From a virus (Duplodnaviria; Heunggongvirae; Uroviricota; Caudoviricetes), in IMG/VR virus record IMGVR_UViG_2609459792_000001: a DNA stretch of 22,815 bases, one strand, 5' to 3'. Positions 4,941 to 22,815 of this stretch are shown here, in pieces (the first letter of the stretch is position 1; each line of letters begins with the position of its first letter). The notes under the pieces were generated by a model that ran no database searches, was not told the DNA's origin, and saw only the letters and a list, made by a program, of their open reading frames with translations. The position numbers and the translations under genes are program-made.

Positions 4941-5597
4941 TCAGCGACCAATCACCACAACCTGACCACCATCCCCTTCGTCTGCCGTGCTGATCTCCTG
5001 AGAAACCACCCGTGACCCCACGCGCATTTCACCGTACAGAACAGGCAGAACATTGCCCTGGGCAACCATGTTATCCAGTGAGGAAAAATAGGTGTTCTGT
5101 TTGCCGTTATCCGTTGTCTGTGTGCGGGGAGTTCTGGCTTTCGGTGCCAGCATCTGCGCCACACCGCCAAGTATCATACTGGCACCGAGAGAAAACAGAT
5201 ACCGGTATACACGCCGCAATGGCTGCCCCCCAGCTGCAAGGGTTCCGGCATATAGCAACCGCAATGACGGCCGCCCCCAGCACAACCTGAAACACACCGC
5301 CACTTTTGGCCCCGGCAGACGCGGCACGATATGGATCACGGCACCATTTGCCAGCGGCTCATTAAGACGGGCAGATAATTCGGTTTCACCTGCATCACGC
5401 CCGGCAATGCGTACCTGATACCAGCCGTCGCTCAGTTTCTGACGAAACGCCGGGAGCTGTGTGGCCAGCGCCCGGATGGCTTCGGCCCCCGTTTTCACAC
5501 GAAGGTCGATGCGGCGGCCAAATCGTTGCAAATCCCCGTAAAGGCAGATGCGTGCCATGCCCGGTGACGCCAGAGGGAGTGTGTGCGTCGCTGCCAT
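4941..5597 (-). CDS. I: Tail tip assembly protein I (internally frame-scrambled but open)
   Basis: 218-aa ORF with lambda gpI-like N-terminus (MAATHTLPLASPGMARICLYGDLQRFGRRIDLRV...) and C-terminus (...VLPVLYGEMRVGSRVVSQEISTADEGDGGQVVVIGR). Overlaps the K 3' end by 103 nt, exactly as in lambda. The middle segment (about 5150..5320) reads as out-of-frame Arg-rich sequence while the Gly/Ala-rich hydrophobic segment is in another frame (ORF 5107..5295). Confidence 0.8.
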   Translation of the reverse strand: MAATHTLPLASPGMARICLYGDLQRFGRRIDLRVKTGAEAIRALATQLPAFRQKLSDGWYQVRIAGRDAGETELSARLNEPLANGAVIHIVPRLPGPKVAVCFRLCWGRPSLRLLYAGTLAAGGQPLRRVYRYLFSLGASMILGGVAQMLAPKARTPRTQTTDNGKQNTYFSSLDNMVAQGNVLPVLYGEMRVGSRVVSQEISTADEGDGGQVVVIGR

Positions 5598-6242: not shown

Positions 6243-6941
6243 TTACTGCGAAAGTTTGTTAATGGAAAGGAAGCCGCCAAAGTTGCCGACGTTATTGCGA
6301 AACTTACAGCCACTCAGGCATTTGCTGCATTTATCCTTCGTGATATCGGACGTTGTCTGGTCATATTCATCCGCGACCGCCGGACCGTGATAACCGCACT
6401 CATCGCCGCGATAGGTCCAGGTGCAGGTGTTGGCCAGCATGATACGTCCCGGAAAAACAGCGCCATCTGTTTCCGTCGGCGTGGACAGTACAAAGGAGGC
6501 ACTCACCGCGCTCAGTTCGCTGCACTGCTCGATGCGCCAGCGGCTGATCACCTCCTGCTCCGGATCGGCGTCACTGTTTCCGTTGACGAAGTTCACCGCA
6601 TCCAGAAAACGGGCATAAACCTTACGCCTGACCACCGTTCCGCCGACCAGACTCTGCAGATCTTCCGCCATCCCGGTGACCATGCCATACAGGTTAGAAA
6701 CCGTCAGCGTGGGGCGCGTACTGGTGCCTTTGCCATTCAGTTCGAAACCACTCCCCTGAATGGGATACGCCTGATACTGTCGCCCCTGCCAGGTGACCGG
6801 CTCACCTTTTTCGTTCTGCTCATTACAGAAAAAATAACGTTCTCCACCGACCTCTGTCAGGTCGATTTCCCATAGCACCACGCTGGCCGACTGCTCCGCA
6901 CGGGTGCATTCATTCAGTGTTTCCTGCCGGATATCCTGCAT
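6243..6941 (-). CDS. L: Tail tip protein L
   Basis: 232-aa ORF, lambda gpL length; ATG shares one base with the M stop codon (TGATG) at 6941, as in lambda. Confidence 0.93.
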   Translation of the reverse strand: MQDIRQETLNECTRAEQSASVVLWEIDLTEVGGERYFFCNEQNEKGEPVTWQGRQYQAYPIQGSGFELNGKGTSTRPTLTVSNLYGMVTGMAEDLQSLVGGTVVRRKVYARFLDAVNFVNGNSDADPEQEVISRWRIEQCSELSAVSASFVLSTPTETDGAVFPGRIMLANTCTWTYRGDECGYHGPAVADEYDQTTSDITKDKCSKCLSGCKFRNNVGNFGGFLSINKLSQ

Positions 6942-9846: not shown

Positions 9847-10677
9847 ACCGGACTCCTCCTGCGATCCCTTCTGATACTGTCATCAGCATTACGTCATCCT
9901 CCGTCATGTCCGCCACATCCGGGGAAGTAGGGATAACTTCATTCCCGTCCGGGCCAAAGCGGACACCTCCGGCAAGCCCTGCCGCTTTCTGCATCAGCAC
10001 ATCATCTTCAGGCTCTTCGTCAGCCTCACGCCGGTTCAGCAAACTGAAATCCAGCGGATGCATATCCGGATCGCTGAAAAACAGGCTGAGCACGGTGTAC
10101 GTCAGCCCGGAAAAGTGCATATCCAGCAGAACATCATGAAAATAATGGGTACTGTAAAAGCGGTGCCAGTCGGCATACTCCGTGGATGACATCCCGGCAA
10201 GCATGGCACGCCAGTCGGGTCGCCCCATCTCACGCGCCAGTTTCAGGGCAAAACTCAGCTCACCGTCGAACACTTTCCCGCAGAAACAGGCTCTGCGGGC
10301 CCGGCGTCCTCTGTCTGTTCAGGGGCATTATTCACCACAAACTCATACATACCAGACAGCCGGTACACCACGTTTTCAGCATGAGAAATTGCCTCCGTGG
10401 GCCAGGTGGTAAGCACTTCCTGCTCAATCTGTTTAACGGCTTCATTCATGGACGGCATCTGCGTCTTCTGCGGATGGTTATGCCACAGGGACATCGCCAC
10501 CAGAAACGCGCCGGTTCTGATGGCGTCTTCCACAGTAAACTTCCGGTTGCTGTCTGACTCCGCCTGTTCTGCCTGCCGTTTCATCAGGGCGAGATGCTCA
10601 ATACGCTGCAGGGCTGACAGTTCAGAAAGCGTGACGGTCACACCGTTATGTTCAAATGATTCGGTTTTCAGGAACAT
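9839..10677 (-). CDS. T: Tail assembly chaperone G-T fusion, made by -1 programmed ribosomal frameshift
   Basis: T-frame ORF 9839..10273 has no independent start and lies in the -1 frame relative to G; the G GGA AAG slippery heptamer is present. Total span 839 nt equals lambda G-T. Confidence 0.85.
10255..10677 (-). CDS. G: Tail assembly chaperone G
   Basis: 140-aa ORF, lambda gpG length; ends ...AGKCSTVS with the slippery heptamer in its last codons. Confidence 0.93.
   Translation of the reverse strand: MFLKTESFEHNGVTVTLSELSALQRIEHLALMKRQAEQAESDSNRKFTVEDAIRTGAFLVAMSLWHNHPQKTQMPSMNEAVKQIEQEVLTTWPTEAISHAENVVYRLSGMYEFVVNNAPEQTEDAGPAEPVSAGKCSTVS
10273..10279 (-). promoter_or_regulatory. -1 programmed frameshift slippery heptamer G GGA AAG (G to G-T)
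   Basis: Minus-strand sequence gcG GGA AAG tgt..., with GGA and AAG in the G frame, 5 codons before the G stop. Confidence 0.8.
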
Positions 10678-15967: not shown

Positions 15968-19648
<3,681 letters not shown>

Positions 19649-19674
<26 letters not shown>

Positions 19675-20194
19675 TCAGCAACCCCGGTATCAGTTCATCC
19701 AGCGCGGCTGCTTTGTTCATGGCTTTGATGATATCCCGTTTCAGGAAATCAACATGTCGGTTTTCCAGTTCCGGAAAACGCCGCTGCACCGACAGGGGGA
19801 TCCCGTCGAGAATACTGGCAATTTCACCTGCGATCCGCGACAGCACGAAAGTACAGAATGCGGTTTCCACCACTTCAGCTGAGTCTCTGGCATTCTTCAG
19901 TTCCTGTGCGTCGGCCTGCGCACGCGTAAGTCGATGGCGTTCGTACTCAATAGTCCCTGGCTGGAGATCTGCCTCGCTGGCCTGGCGCAGTTCTTCAACC
20001 TCCCGGCGCAGCTTTTCGTTCTCAATTTCAGCATCCCTTTCGGCATACCATTTTATAACGGCGGCAGAGTCATAAAGCACCTCATTACCCTTGCCACCGC
20101 CTCGCAGAACGGGCATTCCCTGTTCCTGCCAGTTCTGAATGGTACGGATACTCGCACCGAAAATGTCAGCCAGCTGCTTTTTGTTGACTTCCAT
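19649..20194 (-). CDS. nu1: Terminase small subunit Nu1
   Basis: 181-aa ORF (MEVNKKQLADIFGASIRTIQNWQEQGMPVLRGGGKGNEVLYD...) with N-terminal winged HTH; ATG lies 178 nt from cosN. Confidence 0.96.
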
Positions 20195-20214
20195 TGTTCA
20201 TTCCACGGCCAAAA

Positions 20215-20333
20215 ACAGAGAAAGGAAACGACAAAGGCCCAAAAGCTCGTTTTCAGCACCTGTCGTTTCCTTTCTTTTCAGGGGGTATTTTAAATAAAAA
20301 CATTAAGTTACAACGAAGAAGAACGGAAATGCC
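20215..20333 (-). other. cosB: terminase (gpNu1) binding-site region with R1, R2 and R3 repeats
   Basis: Three copies of the CGTTTCC(T/G)TTCT-type element between Nu1 and cosN: about 20215..20236, about 20261..20278 (inverted) and about 20311..20333. Confidence 0.7.
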
Positions 20334-20371
20334 TTAAACCGGAAAATTTTCATAAATAGCGAAAACCCGCG

Positions 20372-20383
20372 AGGTCGCCGCCC
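20372..20383 (-). other. cosN: 12-nt cohesive-end sequence GGGCGGCGACCT
   Basis: Plus strand reads aggtcgccgccc, the reverse complement of the lambda cohesive end, followed on the minus strand by CGCGGGTTTTCGCTATTTATGAAAATTTTCCGG, as at the lambda left end. Confidence 0.9.
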
Positions 20384-20582
20384 CGTAACCTGTCGGATCG
20401 CCGGAAAGGACCCGCAAAATGATAATAATTATCATCTGCATGTCACAACGTGCATCTACGCCATCAAACCACGTCAAATAATCAATTATGACGCAGGTAT
20501 CATATTAATTGATCTGCATCAACTTAACGTAAAAACAACTTCAGACAATACAAATCAGCGACACTGAATACGGGACAACCTC

Positions 20583-20816
20583 ATGTCAACGAAGAACAGA
20601 ACCCGCAGAACAACAACCCGCAACATCCGCTTTCCTAACCAAATGATTGAACAAATTAACATCGCTCTTGATCAAAAAGGGTCCGGGAATTTCTCAGCCT
20701 GGGTCATTGAAGCCTGCCGCCGGAGACTGTGCTCAGAAAAAAGAGTTTCTCCTGAAGCAAACAAAGAAAAGAGTGACATTACTGAATTGCTCAGAAAACA
20801 GATCAGACCAGATTGA
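20583..20816 (+). CDS. Ribbon-helix-helix DNA-binding protein, YlcI/YnfO (DUF3950)-like
   Basis: 77-aa ORF MSTKNRTRRTTTRNIRFPNQMIEQINIALDQKGSGNFSAWVIEACRRRL...; basic N-terminal tail then a beta-strand/helix pattern typical of Arc/CopG RHH proteins. Resembles small proteins found just before cos in lambda and E. coli cryptic prophages, by recollection. Confidence 0.8.
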   Translation: MSTKNRTRRTTTRNIRFPNQMIEQINIALDQKGSGNFSAWVIEACRRRLCSEKRVSPEANKEKSDITELLRKQIRPD

Positions 20817-20872
20817 AGCAATTTAGATAATCGTGCAGACTACACCCCTCATATCACATGGAAGGTACTACA

Positions 20873-21283
20873 ATGGCTCAGGTTGCCATTTTTAAACAAA
20901 TATTCGATAAAGTGCGAAATAATTTAAACTATCACTGGTTTTATTCTGAACTAAAACGTCACAATGTCTCACATTACATTTACTATTTAGCCACAGAGAA
21001 TATTCATCTTGTTCTTGAAAACGATAATACGGTTTTAATAAAAGGACAGGGTAAGGTTGTAAATGTAAGATTTTCAAAAAATAAATGCCTTATAGAAGCC
21101 ACCTTAAAAGGATTCAAATCAGGAGAGTTATCATTTTACGAATACAGGAAAAATCTTGCTACAGCAGGGGTTTTCAGATGGATTACAAATATCCACGAAA
21201 ACAAAAGGTATTACTATACCTTTGATAATTCATTACTCTTTACTGAGAACATTCAGAACACTACACAAATATTTCCGCACTAA
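20873..21283 (+). CDS. DUF1398 family protein (YbcV/YdfO-like)
   Basis: Start preferred at ATG 20873 ([43 protein letters not shown]...), with GGAAGG Shine-Dalgarno upstream; 136 aa. Strongly AT-rich compared with neighbouring phage genes. Confidence 0.8.
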
Positions 21284-21804
21284 ATCATAACGTCCGGTTT
21301 CTTCCGTGCCAGAACCGGCCTCGCTGGCATGATGAAATATGTGTACCCGGTAACCCCGGTGTGCATCGTTTTTGATTATTCCCACACACTCGCGCAGAAG
21401 GAGTTCCCCGTCGGGCTACGGTCTCTGTTAATACGGGAATACGGCGACGATACAGCGCATGATGTGTCAGGCTTGAATACCTTTATCCTTTAAAAGGGAT
21501 ATCAGTTAAGTTATCCCGTGTAGGGTATAAGCCATTATCAAAGCCACTCTGTAGGAAGTGGCTTTTGTAATGGCAATAAAAAGCCCCGCGAATGCGAGGC
21601 TAAATCCTGGTATTTGTAATGACTGGCTCTTATCTCAACGCAGCCCCTTACCGCGCGCAAAATGCTCAATATCAAGCATCAGCAATGAGATGTTTAATCT
21701 GGATTCACTCCAGAAGTGAGCACCACCCTGTCTACAGAGCCAGATGTGAAGGATGATGAGTAAAATTATCGCTATCATCGAAGGCATTGCGTCCTGATGT
21801 ATTC

Positions 21805-22242
21805 CTAAAGCGTTCTCAGTGCTGTTTGGTCGCGGATAATTCCGTCCCGGATACCGAGAACGTTTCGTCCAGCAACTGGAGAGAGTTCGACGGTGGCATC
21901 ATTGCCCATGCCGGAGGCGCTGGAGGTTTCGGCTGAGGATGGCACAGGGCATTTTCCTTTGACGAGCACCCGACCACCATTATCAAGCTTGCGCCGAAGA
22001 GCATCATTTTCAGCTTTCGCATCAGCTAACTCCTTCGTGTATTTATCATCGAGTGCATCAGCATCACGCTGGCGCTGCTGCATGTCAGTAATGGTGGCGT
22101 TCGCCTTCTCCAGTTCACTGGCCTTGTTATCGCGCTGTTCTTTGTAGGCGATTGCATTATCACGGTAATGATTAACAGCCCATGACAGGCAGACGATGAT
22201 GCAGATAACCAGAGCGGAGATAATCGCGGTTACCCTGCTCAT
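21805..22242 (-). CDS. Rz: i-spanin Rz (inner-membrane spanin subunit)
   Basis: ATG 22242 overlaps the R stop (ATGA); [29 protein letters not shown]... gives an N-terminal TM helix followed by a charged coiled-coil region; 145 aa. Confidence 0.88.
21816..22022 (-). CDS. Rz1: o-spanin Rz1 (outer-membrane lipoprotein), embedded in Rz in another frame
   Basis: 68-aa [42 protein letters not shown]...: signal peptide with VVGC lipobox followed by a Pro-rich segment, lying entirely within Rz. Confidence 0.8.
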
Positions 22243-22736
22243 TGTTGCCCCCACAAACAGACCTCACGCTCAATCTCACGACGAGTCATCAGGCCTTTCC
22301 ATTGCTTACCGCCAGCGTATGCCCAGCGACGTAGCTGGTCACATGCGCCCTTGATATCGCCCTGGTTTATTTTGCGAAGAAGAGTAGATGTTCTGAAATT
22401 GCCTGCGCCCACGTTATAGACGAACGAGTAAAGAGCGCCGCGCGTTGTTTCCGGTATATCGACTTTGATGTACGGGTTAATTTGTCTGGCTACCGTGGCA
22501 AGGTCTTTATTCAGGAGGGCTTTGCATTCTGCTTCGGTATACGTTTTACCGGGAATGATGTCTTTTCCTGTATGCCCGTGACATACAGTCCATACGCCAA
22601 CGATATCTTTGTATGGTATGTAGCTGACACCTTCCAGACCATCGTTACCACTTGGGCCAGTGATTAACACTGATGCTATAGCAATTGCTCCGCCACCAAT
22701 AGCAGCAGCAACGGCTTTTCGTAATGATGGAGGCAT
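22239..22736 (-). CDS. R: SAR endolysin (phage-type lysozyme, phage 21 R-like)
   Basis: 165-aa [63 protein letters not shown]...; Gly/Ala-rich N-terminal signal-anchor-release domain followed by a T4-lysozyme-like fold; ATG overlaps the S stop (TAATG). Confidence 0.92.
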
Positions 22737-22815
22737 TATTCACCTCTCGCAGCCTTGCGCTTATCTTCTTTAATCTTGAAATAAAGGTTTGTCAGGTACG
22801 TCAGCAGGCCAAATA
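22736..22815 (-). CDS. S: Holin S (phage 21 pinholin-like), C-terminal 25 codons; 5' end beyond the window
   Basis: Minus-strand frame ending ...[25 protein letters not shown] then TAA at 22738..22736, overlapping the R start; matches the C-terminus of the S21 pinholin by recollection. Confidence 0.75.

Follow-up and report, generated by a model that had tools for sequence, protein, structure and literature searches.

Two probably independent genes of the YnfO/YlcI and DUF1398 families between Rz and cos of a lambda-type prophage

Between the lysis genes and the cos site of a lambda-type prophage lie two small genes which are read against the late operon. The locus raises the question whether these genes form a dedicated module, as had been proposed, or whether they are independent of each other. 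We addressed this question for a stretch of 22,815 nt, in the following called the window. From the open reading frames and their Pfam matches, the gap between cosN and Rz was found to hold two plus strand genes. The features of the region are the following:

17749-19674, minus strand: terminase A
19649-20194, minus strand: Nu1, small terminase subunit, first packaging gene and left border of the island (Pfam Phage_Nu1, 9.2e-101)
20372-20383: cosN cohesive-end sequence, AGGTCGCCGCCC, read directly
20415-20439: AT-rich palindrome resembling a Fur box, ATGATAAT-A-ATTATCAT, situated after the cos region and before the RHH-like gene (from the Fur consensus)
20583-20816, plus strand: YnfO/YlcI-family, ribbon-helix-helix (RHH)-like gene, 77 aa (Pfam DUF3950)
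20797-20813: PdhR-box-like site at the 3' end of the RHH-like gene (from sequence and alignment)
20873-21283, plus strand: YdfO/YbcV-family DUF1398 gene, 136 aa (Pfam DUF1398)
21635-21787: small ORF after Rz
21805-22254, minus strand: Rz spanin, last recognised lysis-cassette gene and right border of the island (Pfam Phage_lysis, 2.2e-23)
22239-22736, minus strand: R

The sequence AGGTCGCCGCCC, which is the reverse complement of the lambda cohesive end GGGCGGCGACCT, is almost invariant in an alignment with lambda and the Qin prophage of E. coli K-12 and marks the right-hand end of the chromosome in the virion. The start codon of the RHH-like gene is situated 199 bp inward of this end. The DUF1398 gene has a GC content of 31.4% and the RHH-like gene one of 44%, whereas Nu1, A and Rz reach 52-54% and the window as a whole 55.6%. 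The gene contains the 411-bp segment with the lowest GC content of the 22.8 kb, and only 0.13% of such segments are equally low. The AT-rich island on the opposite strand between lysis genes and cos, as described in the original prediction, was thus confirmed with respect to its reading frames, strands, flanks and base composition. A permissive Rfam scan of positions 19500-22815 gave just two sub-threshold matches, neither of them within the two genes.

The 1.7-kb region is 98.9% identical to phage Kati, is also present in lambda and was matched in 4911 of 5426 complete E. coli genomes. Its recurrence at this position in lambdoid prophages, which had been claimed before, therefore holds for lambda, Qin, DLP12 and this large set of genomes. 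The locus is already known, with both genes functionally uncharacterised, and the observation is a correct re-identification.

The family assignments made from the sequence also stood up to HMM searches, both being above the cut-off. The RHH-like protein matches Pfam DUF3950 (4.9e-21, 74.8 bits, cut-off 25), the NCBIfam family YlcI_YnfO_N (NF041551; 35.7 bits, cut-off 30) and PHROG 949 (7.9e-34). The layout KNRTRRTTTRNIRFP-NQMIEQINIALDQ-KGSGNFS-AWVIEACRRRL corresponds to that of an RHH protein, in which a basic N-terminal arm leads into a short beta-strand and helix A, and a G-x-S/T/N turn connects the latter to helix B. In an AlphaFold2 (AF2) model, residues 13-18 are extended, residues 19-32 and 34-52 are helical and a further helix is predicted in the tail (60-72); no strand is called, as expected of a monomer model. 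A known parallel is the immI region of P22, where the small RHH-type proteins Mnt and Arc are likewise encoded in the late region of a lambdoid phage. The motif RNIRFP of the window protein is in register with FNLRWP of Arc and FNFRMP of Mnt, each followed by a helix, G-x-S and a second helix. With hhalign, the correct register was obtained for both proteins (Arc, E 0.025 at 2% probability; Mnt, E 0.27), but the similarity is not statistically significant, and in contrast to P22 the window has no ant-like target gene and no operator was identified. A profile search of the PDB and a comparison with CopG gave no match to the RHH-like protein. An RHH fold is nevertheless likely, and from its sequence the protein probably consists of an Arc/Mnt-like RHH core (codons 1-50) and a variable C-terminal tail.

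The DUF1398 protein matches its Pfam family with 147 bits (3.3e-43, cut-off 22) and the PDB entry 2HH8, E. coli YdfO, with 1.4e-69 over residues 1-140. The RefSeq annotation of an identical prophage uses the second ATG as start codon, i.e., position 20873 of the window, giving 136 aa; starting at an in-frame ATG further upstream, at 20858, the protein would be 5 aa longer. Structure prediction, which had been suggested as a check, was successful for one of the two proteins. The AF2 model of the DUF1398 protein superimposes on 2HH8 (TM-score 0.72-0.76, Foldseek E 9e-13), whereas the model of the RHH-like protein is of low confidence and gave no Foldseek match. No fold match of the DUF1398 model besides 2HH8 was found with Foldseek, and profile searches of PDB sequences added none. 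Since only 2HH8 shares the fold, no biochemical function can be deduced for the DUF1398 protein.

We considered two alternatives for the relationship between the genes. First, they could form a dedicated two-gene module, possibly of the toxin-antitoxin type, in which the RHH-like protein represses the operon and/or neutralises a DUF1398 "effector" via its C-terminal tail; second, they could be two accessory genes that happen to be neighbours. The first alternative would fit the arrangement in the window and in Qin, where the genes are adjacent and co-oriented with a gap of 56 bp. It would also fit the antitoxin-like organisation of the RHH-like protein, in which the N-terminal core would bind DNA and the tail contains the predicted helix 60-72, and a weak match of this protein to a HicB-like antitoxin family of PHROG (E 0.007).

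The distribution of the genes argues against a pair. In the phage collection the RHH-like gene was present in 155 records and the DUF1398 gene in 43, so that the former is about three times as common. All 68 records named as Stx-converting phages with an RHH-like gene lack DUF1398. In the E. coli genomes the RHH core was found at 9861 places and a prophage-type DUF1398 gene, counted at a query coverage of at least 80%, in 3011 genomes. Phages BP-4795 and Lys8385Vzw carry the RHH-like gene alone beside an HNH/TerS/TerL module. Conversely, diverged DUF1398 genes, including E. coli ycgX, are chromosomal singletons without an RHH neighbour. Such singletons have a lower GC content than their flanks in Citrobacter, Kluyvera, Raoultella, Salmonella diarizonae and E. 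coli (ycgX); the gene of Klebsiella pneumoniae is also a singleton, with a GC content that is not low (0.56 versus 0.58 in the flanks). In lambda and DLP12 the two genes are even separated by the oppositely oriented ybcW/lambdap79. The strict coupling across genomes that marks type II toxin-antitoxin systems is thus not observed.

The related loci were fetched with a six-sequence alignment, and matches of "76% identity" in unrelated taxa were left out as probable contamination with lambda control DNA. No diversity was gained from scans of viral contigs, in which all loci returned were near-identical, and a homologue search seeded with a distant DUF1398 protein gave just four proteins. Two apparent RHH-DUF1398 fusion proteins (P0010 and P0014) were rejected as evidence for linkage, as in these gene calls the TGA stop codon of the RHH-like gene is read through as tryptophan (RPD-W-SNLD), presumably owing to the genetic code used in the gene calling, and as in the window the two genes are not in one frame.

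Protein and DNA alignments further revealed a mosaic (recombination) junction at 20727-20735, i.e., inside the RHH-like gene at about codon 50. Upstream of the junction the lambda-type phages are all nearly identical, whereas beyond it no fewer than six different C-terminal tails occur, together with differing cargo. In the DNA alignment with lambda a clean indel of about 560 bp containing ybcW/lambdap79 begins at this junction. In comparison with lambda, the RHH core of the window shows a synonymous divergence (dS) of 0.08 and DUF1398 one of 0.44. The RHH-like gene is both more conserved and more widespread than its neighbour, and its tail, which in a module would neutralise the effector, varies with the DNA that follows the junction. 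In addition, overexpression of YdfO has been published to be beneficial under peroxide, not toxic, and PADLOC gave no significant match for either protein, the best being a weak one of Csx23 to DUF1398 (E 0.023). The original prediction of a dedicated regulator-effector pair was therefore not supported: the counts of 155 and 43 records, the occurrence of each gene alone, the interposed gene and the junction within the RHH-like gene all speak against it, and we regard such a module as unlikely.

Both genes could also be decaying relics or hitch-hiking sequences devoid of function. No function is known for them, the region is non-essential in lambda, and low-GC DNA is likely silenced. However, the reading frames are intact in thousands of genomes, and DUF1398 is a family of folded proteins with a solved structure. 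The differences between alleles are mostly synonymous with few non-synonymous ones. For the RHH core, dN/dS is 0.03-0.10 in comparison with BP-4795 and Lys8385Vzw; for DUF1398 it is 0.15-0.37. Judged by these ratios, each of the two genes is under purifying selection, and the relic explanation is extremely improbable.

The region was also compared with known prophages and phages. Qin, with nohA, a cos remnant, ynfO and ydfO, has the same gene order and orientation as the window and likewise lacks an interposed ybcW. Its spacer from cos to the RHH-like gene is nearly identical, Fur box included, and a PdhR-type box is found at the 3' end of the RHH-like gene as in the window. The RHH-like proteins are about 95% identical and the DUF1398 proteins about 76%, the Qin allele of DUF1398 having diverged with a dS of 0.67. 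In Qin the ynfO and ydfO reading frames are the same with one TGA between them, whereas in the window the two ORFs are in different frames; moreover, Qin is defective, in contrast to the complete lambda-like late region of the window.

The right end of lambda contains bor, lambdap78, lambdap79 and a ylcI-like ORF, which the lambda RefSeq annotation omits; DLP12 contains borD, ybcV, ybcW, ylcI and nohD. Both resemble the window in the position between Rz and cos, in having the RHH-like and DUF1398 genes on the anti-late strand, in an identical RHH core and in the same Fur box. They differ by the segment of about 560 bp with ybcW/lambdap79 on the late strand, by a shorter RHH tail (64 aa) and by bor downstream, and they do not have the small ORF at 21635-21787 that follows Rz in the window. 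ORF52 (DUF3950) of the Stx phage BP-4795 and its relatives have the same RHH core with a handful of substitutions in 50 residues, again on the anti-late strand, with the lysis genes on one side and the first packaging gene on the other. In contrast to the window, the packaging genes are of the unrelated HNH/TerS/TerL type, DUF1398 and the Fur box are absent, and the RHH-like gene stands alone with its own terminator.

How the genes could be expressed was approached through candidate regulatory sites. Of the 19 bp of the Fur consensus, the palindrome at 20415-20439 matches 16, in overlapping registers; by chance, 0.18 matches of at least 14/19 are expected per window. Sequence correspondence identifies it as the orthologue of a Fur-binding site in the K-12 Qin prophage, the "nohA" site, which is located at -233 of nohA, was confirmed by gel shift and ranks among the genome's strong predicted Fur clusters (PMC2189734). 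The box is absent from loci of the BP-4795 type. Genomic SELEX in K-12 identified a PdhR site, AAcaGGTcagACCAgaT, at ynfO>ydfO and another one in the ybcV/ybcW spacer, and in a pdhR mutant the ybcV mRNA is 10-fold lower (PMC7660256). The PdhR-like box of the window differs from the Qin site by one core mismatch (GGT to GAT). Published K-12 data also report an approximately 100-fold induction of ydfO by the ionic liquid [C2mim]Cl and a higher resistance to oxidative (peroxide) stress upon YdfO overexpression; ybcV has been described among the genes responding most strongly to copper stress, and the lambda homologue lambdap78 is non-essential by CRISPRi. Regulation and phenotype are taken from this work on the K-12 homologues, and by analogy a host-controlled expression from the prophage is plausible for the window. 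Strong constitutive expression is unlikely since, according to classical work, cI, rexAB, lom and bor are the only genes expressed in lambda lysogens.

Scanning the window for sigma-70-like promoters (at least 9/12) did not reveal a plus strand site upstream of the RHH-like or the DUF1398 gene, and no plus strand intrinsic terminator was found after DUF1398. Consequently, the textbook moron anatomy of promoter, gene and terminator is not demonstrated here. The RHH-like gene of BP-4795 forms a unit by itself, preceded by a promoter-like site and followed by an intrinsic terminator, and the gene order in lambda and DLP12 implies that DUF1398 needs a separate promoter there. On the minus strand a promoter-like site, GTGACA-16-TATCAT (10/12), reads from 20446 toward cos and Nu1. 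This site overlaps the Fur box, which is confirmed in the K-12 orthologue.

The minus strand site bears on a further explanation, according to which the RHH-like protein would be an Mnt-like repressor of the packaging or late region, made by the prophage and silencing a secondary Q-independent promoter before the terminase genes, with DUF1398 as an unrelated passenger. This would be in line with the divergent orientation of the RHH-like gene and the first packaging gene in two unrelated packaging types, Nu1/A and HNH/TerS/TerL, with the extreme conservation of the RHH core across both, and with the gap to HNH of only 41 bp in BP-4795. Yet no minus strand promoter was found at the BP-4795 locus, and cryptic prophages without structural genes have kept the RHH-like gene. 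The regions upstream of the gene in lambda-type and BP-4795-type phages share 8- and 9-mers only at chance level, i.e., there is no common operator-like motif. We consider this explanation quite unlikely. A wider version, in which YlcI/YnfO would be a pan-lambdoid Mnt-like repressor, each resident prophage copy acting in trans, by virtue of the nearly invariant DNA-binding core, at the packaging border on a Q-independent promoter through cos into terminase and DUF1398 being unrelated cargo, is decidedly unlikely. If true, it would spare lysogens the cutting of cos by terminase or block the packaging of superinfecting relatives. The target promoter of this version would overlap a Fur-bound box in lambda-type phages.

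Finally, the genes could take part in phage-host immunity, acting against a defence, as a decoy or as a trigger, and may be made very early, since they lie at that end of the chromosome which is first to enter the cell, with their reading direction pointing inward. The terminal 199 bp, however, are without a promoter-like plus strand site. Comparisons with the window allele show a faster evolution in the middle of DUF1398 than elsewhere in the gene, with dN/dS up to 0.56, but overall the selection on both genes is purifying and not diversifying, and the PADLOC result given above offers no significant match either. The lambda neighbour lambdap79 (ybcW-like) has been published to activate the Vulcan NADase defence, and Vulcan escape phages lose lambdap79, reportedly by recombination with Qin, which leads to the arrangement without ybcW seen in the window. 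The trigger reported in the literature is thus ybcW/lambdap79, which is absent here. An immunity role of the two genes is very unlikely.

We therefore favour, as a fairly probable explanation, that the two genes are independent accessory ("moron"-type) genes in a permissive gap between lysis and packaging genes, read against the late operon. The moron status is supported because orientation against the late genes and deviant GC content are the usual marks of morons: the GC content is 31% versus 53% in the flanks, the position is between Rz and cos/Nu1, and lambdap78 is non-essential. The lambda morons bor and lom are likewise non-essential, of deviant composition and located on the anti-late strand or within late regions, and they are classically expressed from the prophage; unlike the two genes of the window, they have outer-membrane products and phenotypes that are known.

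The genes themselves, the selection acting on them, their independence and the mosaic history are results of the present analysis. Within this explanation of two independent genes we infer DNA binding by the RHH-like protein, promoters for the genes and a biochemical activity of DUF1398. YnfO/YlcI would be a small, very strongly conserved and probably Arc/Mnt-like RHH DNA-binding protein, whose gene would travel with the border of the packaging module and not with DUF1398, and which would most likely act alone as a transcription regulator. YdfO/YbcV would be a horizontally acquired low-GC cassette encoding a soluble cytoplasmic protein with an orphan fold. Its promoter would probably be its own, weak and activator-dependent, and be located just upstream in the segment with the PdhR-box-like site. 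The protein may thus be made by the uninduced prophage under stress or metabolic control of the host and could confer a conditional fitness effect, e.g., tolerance to oxidative stress.

Few ORFs of the lambda-type genome are still uncharacterised, and these two genes are among them. Most E. coli strains have both, frequently in more than one copy, so that a function found for either would apply very widely. They should be treated as separate units and not as a pair. The Fur site, confirmed in K-12, and the PdhR-type box nearby are testable regulatory inputs. Sensing by a defence system has recently been linked to whether the neighbouring ybcW/lambdap79, which the window lacks, is present.

The island lies between the lysis genes and the packaging genes of a lambda-type late region, which runs on the − strand of the window:

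17749-19674, − strand: terminase A, lambda-type late region
19649-20194, − strand: Nu1 (Pfam Phage_Nu1, 9.2e-101)
20372-20383: cohesive-end sequence AGGTCGCCGCCC, adjoining the packaging genes
20583-20816, + strand: RHH (ribbon-helix-helix) gene, 77 aa (Pfam DUF3950, 4.9e-21; NCBIfam YlcI_YnfO_N above cut-off)
20858/20873-21283, + strand: DUF1398 gene (Pfam DUF1398, 3.3e-43)
21805-22254, − strand: Rz, lysis side of the island
22239-22736, − strand: lysozyme R, lysis side of the island

The DUF1398 ORF also matches YdfO of E. coli, a protein of solved structure (PDB 2HH8, 1.4e-69). In an E. coli prophage that is 99.8% identical, RefSeq starts this gene at the second ATG, giving 136 aa, and this is also where all diverged homologues begin. 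With 31.4% GC, compared with 52-54% in the flanking phage genes, this gene holds the GC minimum of the entire 22.8 kb. The original prediction had placed both genes against the late operon, had called the DUF1398 gene AT-rich, and had assigned both to families recurring at this position in lambdoid prophages. The ORFs, their flanks, the families and the low GC are as described, and the recurrence was found in lambda, Qin and DLP12; the observation thus holds on all points.

Of the 5426 complete E. coli genomes, 4911 have a match to the 1.7-kb region; its identity to phage Kati is 98.9%. In Qin of K-12, nohA, ynfO and ydfO are arranged exactly as in the window. Lambda has both genes at this position. 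Its DUF1398 gene is lambdap78 (complement 47042-47575), its RHH gene is a ylcI-like ORF some 200 bp inside the right end (NC_001416, locus L235, 48110-48303, complement), and between them lies the ybcW-like lambdap79 (47738-47944, late strand); the arrangement in DLP12 is that of lambda. Alignment of lambda with the window showed a clean extra segment of about 560 bp carrying ybcW in lambda; this insertion is flanked on one side by RHH codon ~50 and on the other by a conserved GGTCAGACCAGATTGAA motif, which lies roughly 60 bp ahead of DUF1398. The finding correctly re-identifies a lambdoid locus that is already known, very common and of unknown function.

Several annotations of this locus call for comment. 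The RHH ORF of lambda has no feature in RefSeq NC_001416 despite strong purifying selection on it. RefSeq labels lambdap78 'head protein', as does PHROG 413; this label and 'putative envelope protein' on DUF1398 homologues were found to be without support. Lambda right-end DNA also occurs in unrelated assemblies (Kitasatospora, a Brevibacillus 'plasmid', Flavobacterium, Pedobacter, Arcanobacterium and others; loci L012-L033 and L044-L048), on contigs of about 3.5 kb or 48.5 kb, and in 'Campylobacter phage CJLB-4'. In the unrelated taxa it is most likely sequencing-control or spike-in contamination, and the many frameshifted protein-database variants originate from such contigs.

Further features were seen between DUF1398 and Rz. 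A 54-aa ORF (21329-21493, +), 45 bp past DUF1398 on the same strand, is kept in related prophages (1e-33) and in part in DLP12. Its GC is normal, it matches no family and RefSeq does not annotate it; either a third small gene or a remnant may be present here. Immediately past Rz, a 50-aa hydrophobic ORF (21635-21787, −; PHROG 11822, 1.8e-36; hypothetical in RefSeq) is followed by a good intrinsic terminator (21582-21601, −) and occupies the site held by bor in lambda. Rfam gave a weak, sub-threshold match to the Salmonella Hfq-binding sRNA STnc560 at 21512-21703 (E 0.36).

Both the RHH and the DUF1398 ORF are real genes. Compared with the phages BP-4795 and Lys8385Vzw, the RHH core differs synonymously in 12-20 codons and non-synonymously in 5-8 (dS 0.8-1.6, dN/dS 0.03-0.10), which is typical third-position wobble. 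For DUF1398 the overall dN/dS is 0.15-0.37; the central codons 57-92, also the low-confidence part of the structure model, evolve faster (0.27-0.56 in comparisons involving the window's allele). Among only four diverged phages, RHH codons 7-15 (20601-20627) show almost no synonymous variation; this stretch holds the direct repeat AACCCGCA...AACCCGCA.

The original prediction had further joined the two genes into a possible lysogen-expressed regulatory or fitness module. As a paired module or toxin–antitoxin system, they fail the co-occurrence test, and each is found alone. Searched at the protein level, 50,697 phage records gave 155 with the RHH gene and 43 with DUF1398; the 68 records named Stx-converting phages that carry the RHH gene all lack DUF1398. 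Among complete E. coli genomes, 4184 contain the RHH core, at 9861 places in all, and 3011 contain prophage-type DUF1398 (at least 80% query coverage); the chromosomal paralogue ycgX accounts for most other DUF1398 matches. The RHH gene is on its own in BP-4795 and Lys8385Vzw, where a 41-bp gap separates it from a divergently oriented HNH-TerS-TerL packaging module that is not related to the window's Nu1/A. The BP-4795 copy is preceded by a promoter-like site and followed by a good intrinsic terminator. Conversely, diverged DUF1398 genes (34-53% identity) are isolated singletons in Citrobacter, Klebsiella, Kluyvera, Raoultella, Pseudocitrobacter, Salmonella diarizonae and E. coli (ycgX), mostly with GC below that of their flanks, and none has RHH or phage genes within 5 kb.

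The internal structure of the locus also argues against a paired module. A mosaic junction lies inside the RHH gene, since in the alignment of homologues residues 1-49 are nearly invariant and the C-terminal tails beyond them fall into at least six unrelated types. Between the window and lambda, dS is 0.08 in the RHH core and 0.44 in DUF1398; the two therefore have different histories.

Apparent RHH-DUF1398 'fusion' proteins (database entries P0010 and P0014; locus L237, 3757-4458) were rejected as evidence of linkage, for in them the ynfO stop codon TGA is read as tryptophan. In Qin of K-12, ynfO and ydfO share a frame with a single TGA between them, whereas in the window the frames differ. 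On a Kluyvera chromosome (L070) a Bor-like lipoprotein gene (6264-6548) lies some 0.9 kb downstream of a diverged DUF1398 gene (5007-5381) in the same orientation, an order resembling lambdap78-bor of lambda with no phage genes nearby.

The DUF1398 model (pLDDT 74.6) consists of two helices and then two units, in each of which one helix is joined to three strands. Its match to 2HH8 reaches E 9e-13 (TM-score 0.72-0.76), and no other PDB entry does better than E 0.2. A search of 1.84 billion representative proteins returned only 189 clusters of relatives, mostly fragments. The predicted fold thus gives no readable function. The YnfO/YlcI protein is likely, not proven, to be ribbon-helix-helix: its sequence order is RHH-like (basic arm, RNIRFP, helix, KGSGNFS, second helix), and the AF2 secondary structure agrees with this layout. 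hhalign placed it in correct register on Arc and Mnt, without significance, and PHROG gave a HicB-like match (0.007); Foldseek and the PDB profile search gave no match.

On the + strand no sigma-70-like site of at least 9/12 was found upstream of either gene, and no terminator after DUF1398. In K-12, SELEX placed PdhR sites both within the ybcV/ybcW spacer and at the 3' end of ynfO, and in a pdhR mutant ybcV mRNA is down 10-fold (PMC7660256); the position of the PdhR box is kept in the window (20797-20813), but with GGT changed to GAT. Also in K-12, ionic liquid raises ydfO about 100-fold, depending on growth phase, and YdfO overexpression raises oxidative-stress resistance (PMC4077768). Under copper stress the K-12 gene ybcV is among the 12 strongest-responding genes (PMC13618251), and by CRISPRi the lambda DUF1398 gene is non-essential (PMC10695390). 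Because classical work names only cI, rexAB, lom and bor as lysogen-expressed lambda genes, expression of the RHH and DUF1398 genes, if any, is probably low or conditional.

Between cos and the RHH gene lies an AT-rich palindrome (20419-20435) within a Fur-box-like stretch (20415-20439), matching the Fur consensus at 16/19 positions (best match 20415-20433; 0.18 matches of at least 14/19 are expected by chance per window). Base for base it matches the K-12 'nohA' Fur site of Qin, which lies 233 bp before nohA and 156 bp before ynfO and was itself confirmed by gel shift; the site before nohB in DLP12 is among the genome's strongest predicted Fur clusters, and ynfO is not mentioned there (PMC2189734). 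Lambda also has the box, about 30-55 bp from its right end; BP-4795-type loci lack it. Close to where the ORF at 21635-21787 starts there is a second, weaker cluster (21752-21776, 14-15/19 on both strands). Overlapping the Fur box, a − strand promoter-like site (20446-20419, GTGACA-16-TATCAT, 10/12) is directed through cos to Nu1 and A; as a promoter it would allow the terminase genes to be transcribed independently of Q. That the RHH protein itself controls the packaging border is possible but unsupported.

According to a 2026 preprint, the Vulcan NADase defence is activated by lambdap79, and escape phages delete this gene, reportedly by recombination with Qin. Such a deletion yields the ybcW-less arrangement of the window. 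This shows that island content is shaped by host immunity, without speaking directly to the RHH and DUF1398 genes, for which roles in phage-host immunity are possible but unsupported.

Two independent accessory genes are the best-supported reading of the island, one that we consider fairly probable. The strongly conserved RHH gene would be autonomous, probably encoding an Arc/Mnt-like regulator and marking the packaging-module border, and the DUF1398 gene would be a facultative low-GC cassette expressed conditionally under host control.
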